DNA of 64,000 nucleotides, taken from NCBI RefSeq assembly GCF_003790525.1, contig NZ_CP033635.1; one strand, written 5' to 3'. Positions 1,882 through 19,958 of this stretch are shown piece after piece. Made by a program: the position numbers and the translations under genes. Each line of letters starts with the position of its first letter. Position 1 is the first letter of the stretch. The stretch comes from Escherichia coli. Lineage in GTDB: Bacteria; Pseudomonadota; Gammaproteobacteria; Enterobacterales; Enterobacteriaceae. Under the pieces are notes generated by a model. That model did not search any database, was not told the origin of the DNA, and was given only the letters and a program-made list of their open reading frames with translations.

Positions 1882-1894
1882 GTTATGAATTTAG

Positions 1895-2020
1895 CCAAAG
1901 CTATGTTTAGTGTATTTTTAATAATCAGACATAGCTTAGGCTATATTACCTCTTCCCTTATTTGTTATTTATTTTAACGTTTCATTGATATATAAATCTA
2001 AATGAAAATCGTTATCAATA
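1895..2020. promoter_or_regulatory. Candidate MntR operator (CATAGC/GCTAT palindromic half-sites) and Fur-like box (aatgaaaatcgttatc) upstream of mntP
   Basis: Palindromic motifs seen in sequence; mntP is known to be MntR/Fur regulated. Confidence 0.4.
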
Positions 2021-2084
2021 AAGTGATGAAATAATATATTCCAACAGTTGTTTTATATTCTCAAAATATGTTAAGGTTGCGCCC

Positions 2085-2300
2085 TCATTTGGGGAGTAGC
2101 CGATTTCCAGATTCCGGAAATGTACGTGTCAACATACTCGTTGCAAAACGTGGCACGTACGGACTGAACACTTTCAGTCAGGCGAGACCATATGCACATC
2201 AATCGCTATGCCTGCATGAACGCGAAAACCATCGCGGTTTGTTGTTCATGTATGCATGTTTGCTGGGGGCGATGATGTGTTTTATGGATACCCCGGTCAG
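2085..2300 (+). promoter_or_regulatory. yybP-ykoY family Mn(2+) riboswitch in the mntP 5' leader
   Basis: Conserved TTGGGGAGTAGCC element at about 2088-2100 and a long structured leader directly upstream of mntP. Confidence 0.6.
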
Positions 2301-2309
2301 GACGTTGTC

Positions 2310-2876
2310 ATGAATATCACTGCTACTGTTCTTCTTGCGTTTGGTATGTCGATGGATGCATTTGCTGCATCAATCGGTAAAGGTGCCACCCTCCATAAAC
2401 CGAAATTTTCTGAAGCGTTGCGAACCGGCCTTATTTTTGGTGCCGTCGAAACCCTGACGCCGCTGATCGGCTGGGGAATGGGCATGTTAGCCAGCCGGTT
2501 TGTCCTTGAATGGAACCACTGGATTGCGTTTGTGCTGCTGATATTCCTCGGCGGGCGAATGATTATTGAGGGTTTTCGTGGCGCAGATGATGAAGATGAA
2601 GAACCGCGCCGTCGACACGGTTTCTGGCTACTGGTAACCACCGCGATTGCCACCAGCCTGGATGCCATGGCTGTGGGTGTTGGTCTTGCTTTCCTGCAGG
2701 TTAACATTATCGCGACCGCATTGACCATTGGTTGTGCAACCTTGATTATGTCGACATTAGGGATGATGGTTGGTCGCTTTATCGGCTCAATTATTGGGAA
2801 AAAAGCGGAAATTCTCGGCGGGCTGGTGCTGATCGGTATTGGCGTCCAGATCCTCTGGACGCACTTCCACGGTTAA
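2310..2876 (+). CDS. mntP: Manganese efflux pump MntP
   Basis: 188-aa product starting [18 protein letters not shown]; internal start of the 206-aa track ORF. Confidence 0.9.
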
Positions 2877-3682: not shown

Positions 3683-3847
3683 GACAACTCCGGCAGGATA
3701 CTAAAGGCCGCAAGTGTAACGCGAATCACGCGGCGGGCAAATATCCGAACGCCAGGAGCGAAGATAAAGCAAAGTAAAAAGCCTCGCATTCGGCGAGGCT
3801 TTATAGCGAGATTGAAGCGTATTCACACTTCAGATCAGTGGATTCGA

Positions 3848-4057
3848 TCAGATAGCTGTTACGTTAACAGCTGCCGGACCTTTCTGGCCGTCCTGAATTT
3901 CGAACTCAACGTTCTGACCTTCAGCCAGAGTTTTGAAGCCATTACCCTGGATAGCGGAGAAGTGTACGAACACGTCTTTGCTGCCATCAGCCGGAGTAAT
4001 GAAGCCAAAACCTTTAGACTCGTTGAACCACTTAACCTGACCTTTAATCTTTGCCAT
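3848..4057 (-). CDS. cspC: Cold-shock protein CspC
   Basis: 69-aa CSD protein, [20 protein letters not shown]. Confidence 0.95.
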
Positions 4058-4069
4058 TTGAAAAATTCC

Positions 4070-4213
4070 TTAGATTGTTTTCTTCGCCCGCAGGCATAAC
4101 ATAGATAAAACTGACACATTACTGCATGAGGCACCAATATAAGGCTCGGCAGAGAAGCGGTATTCAACGTCAACGTGTTTACTCAGGACTTCTTTACTGA
4201 AAATGCCACACAT
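4070..4213 (-). CDS. yobF: Small protein YobF (not in ORF track)
   Basis: Manual reverse-strand translation gives a 47-aa [50 protein letters not shown] directly upstream of cspC. Confidence 0.85.
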
Positions 4214-4882
4214 AAACAGAACTGTACCTCGTTTAACCCGAAATCTGTTATCACATACAACGTTAATTATGGCAAGCCATTTTTAAACATGTCTCGATCA
4301 GACGCACAAATCTCGATACGTCTTCCACTTTTTTTGCACACTTATGCAACGGAATACGCGCCGATATATCATTGTGCTTAACCTTGCCAGTTCAGGCAGA
4401 TACTTAAACTGACGTATTTTCTAACATAGTTCAATAAGTTCAGTTGTTCCATGCCAATGGGAGAAGTTATTACATAGTGCGTGCAATATCACATTTTCTG
4501 CTATGCAATGAATAAAAAGTTATATCACTTTTTCTCATAAAACAGTCAGTTAACGGCCATCAATCACCCCAAAGAGAAGTCAATCGCCAAAGGTATTGTA
4601 AATTTAAAATAAGAAAAATTGATGAATGCGCAAAAAAATCAAGAGAGAAACGTTTCGCTAATAAATAATACCACGCTTAATCACAAATCCGATGTAAACA
4701 TCCTAATAAATTAATGGGCTAAATATCTTTTTCTGATATCCCGTTACGCAAATAAATAATATGATAATTATTTGAAGTCAGACCAGAGTTTTAATTTGAA
4801 GCAGTTGCACCATGACAGTGCGTATAATCAGGATGAATTGAGTAACCCTTCAACGACGGGGTTACTCAAGATTGAGGAAGGA

Positions 4883-19699: not shown

Positions 19700-19958
19700 G
19701 GGAATGCTTCTGGCTTTTAACAGATAAAAAGAGACCGAACACGATTCCTGTATTCGGTCCAGGGAAATGGCTCTTGGGAGAGAGCCGTGCGCTAAAAGTT
19801 GGCATTAATGCAGGCTTAGTTGCCTTGCTCTTTAAGAATAGATGACGACGCCAGATTTTCCAGTTTGCGTGCAAAATGGTCAATAAAAAGCGCGGTGGTC
19901 ATCAGCTTAAATGTTAAAAACCGCCCGTTCTGGTGAAAGAACTGAGGCGGTTTTTTTA
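19700..19958 (+). ncRNA. ryeA: Antisense small RNA RyeA (SraC), approximate bounds
   Basis: Known to overlap sdsR on the opposite strand; plus-strand intrinsic terminator (ccgcc...ggcgg then T-tract) at about 19920-19958. Confidence 0.45.
19736..19828 (-). ncRNA. sdsR: Small RNA SdsR (RyeB)
   Basis: Reverse-strand sequence GCAAGGCAACTAAGCCTGCATTAATGCCAACTTTTAGCGC...GGTCTCTTTTT recognised as SdsR; lies between pphA and yebY. Confidence 0.75.

Follow-up and report, generated by a model that had tools for sequence, protein, structure and literature searches.

The 428-nt intergenic region between yobD and mntP (positions 1882-2309) is, with a probability that we put at about 95%, the native Escherichia coli mntP control region, which operates at two levels, transcription and the leader RNA. 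Positions are those of the window, the whole 64-kb stretch of E. coli DNA that was analysed. Our own evidence concerns the sequence elements, the structure and covariation of the aptamer, the conservation of the platform helix and the linkage of aptamer and mntP across bacteria; Mn2+ binding, the action of MntR, Fur and H-NS, and Rho-dependent termination are taken from the literature. In the proposed mechanism, a weak promoter with an extended -10 (2048-2077) would be preceded by a Fur-like box (1998-2022) and by two putative MntR palindromes (1889-1906, 1929-1946), and the leader that it probably yields (2085-2309) would open with a Mn2+ aptamer of the yybP-ykoY family (2085-2195). Without Mn2+ the platform helix (2194-2206/2269-2280) would extend, the UAUGG segment (2283-2287) would then capture the 3' half of P1.1, and the freed G-run of L1 could pair with a C-run (2291-2296) that closely precedes the Shine-Dalgarno sequence; initiation of translation would drop, leaving the untranslated RNA open to Rho-dependent termination.

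RefSeq places yobD (1423-1881) upstream and mntP downstream, with no regulatory feature annotated between them. The yobD-mntP region was matched in 5,422 of 5,426 complete E. coli genomes, with at least 80% query coverage in 5,418, and the 551 bases around the mntP leader are 100% identical to those of E. coli CE10, IAI39 and SMS-3-5. When aligned over 1860-2330, which includes the last bases of yobD and the first of mntP, the window and K-12 differ at eight bases (Table 1), all of which leave the conserved aptamer pairings and loops untouched. The control region is a copy, from a non-K-12 lineage, of one that is already known, and holds nothing biologically new. The first-pass annotation had proposed a candidate Mn riboswitch preceded by MntR and Fur sites, regarding it as known biology that accounts for a long, apparently empty gap. 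This view of the locus stands: the crystal structure 4Y1M, activation by MntR and Fur, and Rho termination have all been published for E. coli mntP, and the 428 nt are filled by known elements. The extent given there, 1895-2309, is right at its end, since the mntP ATG (2310-2312) begins at 2310 and 2309 is the last leader base; its start cuts through MntR box A, the region beginning at 1882.

Table 1. Features of the yobD-mntP region and differences from K-12, in window positions
Feature	Position	Strand	Remarks
K-12 difference	1881		yobD stop codon, which reads TAG here and TAA in K-12
MntR box A, putative, ATTTAGCCAAAGCTATGT	1889-1906		Centre ~-187.5 relative to the start site; one mismatch to ATAGC-N4-GCTAT (core 1891-1904)
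MntR box B, putative, ACATAGCTTAGGCTATAT	1929-1946		Centre ~-147.5; ATAGC-N4-GCTAT with 0 mismatches (core 1931-1944), sole perfect copy in the window
Invariant TTAACG block	1974-1979		Columns T120-G125 of alignment A5; ten enterobacterial mntP promoters
Fur-like box, CTAAATGAAAATCGTTATC, and overlapping 6-nt-shifted matches	1998-2022		Centre ~-75; match to GATAATGATAATCATTATC
K-12 differences	1999, 2024-2025		Promoter
Core promoter, probable	2048-2077	+	-35-like TTGTTT (2048-2053), 18-nt spacer, extended -10 TGtTAAGGT (2069-2077)
Mn2+ riboswitch aptamer, yybP-ykoY four-way junction	2085-2195	+	RF00080 41.9 bits, model R1, covariation, minimum-energy fold
Aptamer P1.1	2085-2091/2189-2195
Aptamer L1	2092-2098 and 2184-2188
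Aptamer P1.2	2099-2101/2181-2183
Aptamer P2	2103-2108/2116-2121
Aptamer P3.1	2122-2131/2151-2160
Aptamer L3	2132-2138
Aptamer P3.2	2139-2142/2147-2150
Aptamer P4	2162-2168/2173-2179
K-12 difference	2169		P4 loop; C in the window, U in K-12; sole aptamer difference
Platform helix	2194-2206 with 2269-2280 (2194-2280)	+	97% paired in ten taxa; four pairs changed on both sides
Insertion hairpin inside platform helix	2207-2258	+	Only in Escherichia and Citrobacter; absent from Enterobacter-type leaders
K-12 differences	2234, 2238		Insertion hairpin
Invariant G-run CUGGGGG inside platform helix	2263-2269	+
UAUGG	2283-2287	+	Predicted invader of the P1.1 3' half and L1 (CCAUA, 2188-2192) without Mn2+; unconstrained minimum-energy fold
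C-run CCCCGG (2291-2296), then Shine-Dalgarno AGGA (2299-2302)	2291-2302	+
K-12 difference	2304		Just 3' of the Shine-Dalgarno sequence
mntP CDS, 188 aa manganese efflux pump	2310-2876	+	Pfam PF02659 Mntp, E = 2.4e-55; RefSeq annotation

The aptamer at the head of the leader

The conserved element GGGGAGTAG, to which the first-pass annotation had drawn attention, occurs once in the window (2091-2099; 0.16 occurrences expected by chance), and the leader has the length of 225 nt stated there if transcription starts at 2085; both 225 and 229 nt are quoted in papers. A start at 2085, which we infer, fits the published nucleotide numbering, in which A11 (in L1) corresponds to 2095 and A48 (the first L3 base) to 2132, and the extended -10 appears to suit 2085 better than 2081. 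The leader is also structured, as had been claimed: the segment 2085-2197 folds into the four-way junction with an energy of -37.5 kcal/mol (z = -3.45), a stability that none of 200 shuffles matched. Both loops of the metal site are present, L1 as GGGGAGUAG ... GAGAC (2091-2099 and 2184-2188) and L3 as CAACAUAC (2130-2137), and they match upper-case, highly conserved positions of the RF00080 consensus. With its end 115 nt from mntP, the aptamer belongs to the leader of a gene for a metal exporter, as expected for a family that precedes exporters of the MntP, TerC or P-type ATPase classes.

In a gathering-mode Rfam scan, the window gave no match to RF00080, the yybP-ykoY family; the only matches were SraC/RyeA, SdsR/RyeB and one of cspA type. 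In E-value mode on 1850-2400, RF00080 was by far the top family (2083-2179; E = 5.5e-10; 41.9 bits, the gathering score being 45), with the GGGGAGUAG segment aligned in unpaired columns. The gathering score is likewise missed by the K-12 reference leader and by those of E. albertii and E. cloacae (Rfam 15); besides window positions 2083-2179, the loci concerned by the RF00080 misses are L002, L069 and L035. Because the K-12 reference fails too, the miss reflects limited sensitivity of the model towards this lineage and is not evidence against membership. The check with the yybP-ykoY model that had been suggested for this locus therefore turns out negative at the gathering score and positive in E-value mode, and the lack of a covariance-model hit, which had been named as grounds for abandoning the riboswitch, would mislead in a default Rfam run. 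For annotation the lesson is that a default scan at gathering threshold misses the validated mntP riboswitch in K-12 as well as in this strain. Together with the absence of a RefSeq feature, this makes the 428-nt "empty" gap explicable by known elements that automated pipelines leave unmarked.

The sub-threshold score could also be taken to mean that the leader is no functional member of the Mn riboswitch class, with the score and the GGGGAGUAG match arising from degenerate or chance resemblance. Such a reading can point to the miss at the gathering threshold in the window and to the Rfam alignment, which stops at 2179 and leaves the 3' GAGACC strand uncovered. However, the E-value speaks against it, as does the K-12 leader, which differs by one loop base and misses the gathering score too, yet has a crystal structure and functional data. 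Moreover, orthologous leaders of related genera pass RF00080 at 45.1-61.4 bits (Citrobacter FP75, 52.4; locus L117, 48.5; Enterobacter BIGb0383, 47.5; Pseudescherichia, 45.1; Providencia, 61.4; and others), and covariation backs all six helices, as set out below. We consider a non-functional leader scarcely credible, the covariation and the Rfam scores of the relatives having already effectively refuted it.

The covariation was obtained from homologues retrieved over species-representative genomes with the pattern GGGGAGTAG, 15-45 nt, TCAACATAC, which returned at least 120 loci. The invariance of L1 and L3 in this set holds by construction because the search required both strings exactly, and the independent evidence from the set is the covariation of the helices only. 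Twenty homologues among the matches listed were aligned with the window sequence and the four-way junction was written onto the alignment; 90.4% of the cells form standard pairs, against 28-45% with slid partners, and in 25 of the 37 pairs both partners have changed. R1, the covariance model derived from these aligned sequences, has a single match in the 64-kb window (2083-2197, 107.6 bits), a score that is not independent evidence because the window sequence was in the seed. Among 96 homologues, again among the matches listed, the junction is 90.7% paired (29-40% in slid controls) and compensatory changes occur in 30 of 34 pairs; 884 cells changed on both sides, compared with 258 in shuffles, and the covariation score was reached by none of 500 shuffles. 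The support extends to every helix of the junction, P1.1/P1.2, P2, P3.1/P3.2 and P4. In addition, a MntP homologue lies 144-270 nt downstream of the aptamer, on the same strand, in at least 32 loci among the matches listed, and these loci span several phyla, from Enterobacteriaceae to Xanthomonas, alphaproteobacteria and Lachnospiraceae. The candidate Mn riboswitch of the first-pass annotation is borne out as a yybP-ykoY-type aptamer by the Rfam E-value match, by R1 and by covariation. All the structural features of the family that could be tested are present, and the one shortfall is the Rfam cut-off, at which the reference fails as well.

Firmicutes transcriptional yybP-ykoY riboswitches use an intrinsic terminator as their platform. 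The members from L. lactis (yoaB) and B. subtilis (yybP/ykoY) share the four-way junction of the mntP element, with P1.1 as the switch helix; the mntP platform, unlike theirs, affects translation and, in second place, Rho termination. The closest known system is the K-12 mntP (yebN) riboswitch (RF00080, 4Y1M), which has the same locus, promoter, platform and gene and an aptamer identical except at C2169 (U in K-12). For the K-12 aptamer a crystal structure (PDB 4Y1M), co-transcriptional probing and functional data are available, and selective Mn2+ binding that alters expression has been reported for that allele, one P4-loop base away from the present one (PMC12153347, PMC11647493). The second E. 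coli member, alx (ygjT), shares the L1/L3 metal sensing, is translational and precedes a putative Mn exporter; it has, however, a three-way junction without P2 and a different L3, its P4 holds an intrinsic terminator and its response is linked to pH (PMC12153347), whereas in the window element P2 is present and L3 is the canonical CAACAUAC. The R1 search found no alx-type copy in the 64-kb window.

The expression platform and its short reading frames

Ten enterobacterial leaders were aligned from the start site to mntP. Downstream of the aptamer the alignment runs through a conserved CACATCAAYYGC, an insertion of ~50 nt confined to Escherichia and Citrobacter, an invariant CTGGGGG, GCRRYGRTGTG, TATGG, CCCGGTCAGGAC and the ATG. 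The platform helix, the UAUGG strand and the C-run beside the ribosome-binding site are conserved in four genera. The pairing of UAUGG with CCAUA is retained in 10 of 10 taxa at four of its five positions and in 7 of 10 at the fifth, both segments being nearly invariant. The C-run can pair with the L1 G-run UUGGGG (2089-2094), a possibility kept in all ten taxa, with G-C replaced by G-U in four; the G-run spans 2089-2094 in this conservation test and 2091-2094 in the unconstrained fold. At the C-run and Shine-Dalgarno sequence, CCGGTCAGGAC is nearly invariant in the ten leaders.

The unconstrained fold of the leader reaches -86.9 kcal/mol, compared with -75.3 kcal/mol when the aptamer is enforced, and it keeps P1.2 to P4, breaking only P1.1 and L1, in whose place UAUGG pairs with CCAUA and the L1 G-run with the C-run. 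Published work on mntP has described the 3' half of P1.1 as pairing either in the aptamer or with the platform, with strand invasion when the transcript is ~205 nt long; the strand exchange between UAUGG and P1.1 predicted here agrees with that K-12 account. Thermodynamic modelling of the accessibility of the Shine-Dalgarno sequence gave no clean difference between the free and the aptamer-locked leader, and published probing saw no clear Mn-dependent change at the mntP ribosome-binding site. Since neither of them reveals a clear change at that site, the final step of the mechanism, namely the exact route by which the ribosome-binding site would be occluded, is one that we infer. Rho-dependent termination in the mntP leader and early coding region, partly relieved by Mn, has been published. 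The insertion also contains a terminator-like hairpin (2221-2246), formed in the window allele by CGCGAAAACCATCGCG followed by GTTTGTTGTT, which the A at 2234 and the C at 2238 of K-12 weaken.

A 12-codon open reading frame (2275-2313) occupies the final 40 nt of the leader; its start codon at 2275, an AUG that three relatives replace by GUG, follows CUGGGGG by 5 nt, and its UGA stop (2311-2313) overlaps the mntP start codon as AUGA. If this frame were translated, part of the switching might run through it: termination-reinitiation could couple its translation to that of mntP, and the ribosomes translating it could protect the leader from Rho. Eight of the 10 enterobacterial leaders preserve the frame, whereas 1-nt indels disrupt it in locus L117 and in E. 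cloacae. No coding constraint was seen among the ten leaders, the peptide varying exactly where the RNA spacer varies, and the papers found make no mention of the frame; it is unlikely to be functional, and we grant only a slim chance to its being translated as part of the switch. Two further frames were rejected. A 27-codon Cys-rich frame (2192-2275) was discarded as coding sequence, both of its K-12 differences being nonsynonymous and E. albertii carrying a 13-nt deletion; an in-frame upstream ATG at 2256, which would extend MntP by 18 aa at its N-terminus, is absent in Enterobacter-type leaders, and RefSeq sets the start at 2310.

Promoter and candidate operators

The geometry of the core promoter fits a start site at 2085, and the sequence TTGTTTTATATTCTCAAAATATGTTAAGGTTGCG within it is almost invariant in the ten taxa, as part of a conserved block at 2048-2080. 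A consensus promoter scan did not detect 2048-2077, because the -10 matches at three of six positions and the scan does not score an extended -10. The two 9/12 matches that the scan did return, ending at 1947 and 2040, were rejected, as they are no more than shuffles give and neither fits the start site. The promoter region has a G+C content of 26%, consistent with the H-NS silencing that has been reported.

In the Fur-like box, 1998-2016 agrees with the 19-bp consensus GATAATGATAATCATTATC at 14 of 19 positions, a score equalled or exceeded in 4.5% of local shuffles (P = 0.045), so that on sequence alone its distinction from chance in AT-rich DNA is marginal. The overlapping matches shifted by 6 nt reach 12/19 on the plus strand and 13/19 on the minus strand. 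Overlapping matches of this kind on both strands are typical of Fur-site architecture. Moreover, AAATGAAAATCGTTATCA in the box is nearly invariant across the ten taxa, with divergent flanks. In the literature, Fur binds and activates the mntP promoter, and Mn-loaded MntR and Fur raise mntP initiation by relieving H-NS silencing. It could still be argued that 1998-2022 is not a Fur site at all and represents H-NS nucleation, binding by some other factor or a fortuitous match in AT-rich DNA, given that five matches as good occur on the plus strand of the window alone, that the region is so poor in G+C and that a neighbouring invariant block, TTAACG, has no factor assigned; the invariance of the box against its flanks, the shifted matches on both strands and the reported binding and activation by Fur make this doubtful, and a Fur site is the reading we prefer. 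Of the MntR and Fur sites expected by the first-pass annotation, two MntR boxes were found, and a Fur-like box is present that is marginal by sequence match and conserved among relatives. The TTAACG block lies downstream of the MntR boxes and upstream of the Fur-like box, and an inverted TAACGAT lies inside the latter (2008-2014, minus strand).

The palindromes announced upstream of the leader are the two 18-bp sites with an ATAGC-N4-GCTAT core listed in Table 1. This motif matches six times in the window, where 1.26 matches are expected, and when the intergenic promoter region was shuffled 2,000 times with dinucleotides preserved, two such sites never arose. In the ten taxa the core bases of the boxes are invariant and the N4 spacer is variable; box A is kept in nine of the ten enterobacterial relatives and is degenerate in Enterobacter sp. 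Bisph1, where box B is intact. The right half of box A, GCTATGTTT, is identical to the half-site of the mntH operator. Besides mntS, MntR also represses mntH, and the operators of mntH (aaacATAGCCTTTGCTATgttt, no mismatch) and mntS (ATAGCTATTGCTAA, one mismatch) have the same ATAGC-N4-GCTAT core as the window boxes. According to PMC11275975, the MntR sites of mntS overlap the promoter and repress; the mntP boxes, unlike these, are 22 bp apart, at ~-147 and ~-187, and are reported there as activating. The same paper, citing Waters 2011, describes two MntR sites at mntP as "over 20 bp" apart and "~170 bp" from the promoter, with which the boxes of the window, ~150-190 bp upstream of the start site, agree in spacing and distance.

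Taken together the two boxes can form a 60-nt hairpin (1888-1947; -22.2 kcal/mol, z = -4.5), which also forms in nine of ten relatives and is expected because each MntR box is itself palindromic. That this inverted repeat is mainly an RNA hairpin at the yobD 3' end, serving as a terminator or stabiliser, and not a pair of MntR operators, might be suggested by its stability and conservation, by its beginning 7 nt past the yobD stop codon and by apparent compensation at some inter-box positions, such as ATAGCA/TGCTAT in two Enterobacter-like taxa. The complementarity between boxes is, however, automatic, each being a palindrome, and invariant cores with variable spacers are the pattern of a protein footprint, with a core that the mntH and mntS operators share. 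In Enterobacter sp. Bisph1 the degenerate box A goes with an intact box B; no U-tract follows the stem and a terminator scan found nothing there; and the MntR sites reported in PMC11275975 have matching spacing and distance. We regard a primarily RNA role as very improbable and retain the MntR operators, whose hairpin may have a second role at the yobD 3' end. Weak matches to microRNA families at 1877-1959 in E-value-mode Rfam were rejected, as they reflect the hairpin-like symmetry of the two boxes.

Elsewhere in the window, the gathering-mode matches mark two other loci. The Rfam "cspA thermoregulator" match (137.6 bits, 3773-4233, minus strand) falls on a cold-shock-protein paralogue downstream of yobF, named cspE in RefSeq for strain CE10; since it covers leader and coding sequence, it may mainly reflect similarity between paralogues. 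We take this locus to be yobF-cspC in K-12. An antisense pair of small RNAs, SraC/RyeA (plus strand, 176 bits) and SdsR/RyeB (minus strand, 114 bits), is present at full length at 19722-19866.
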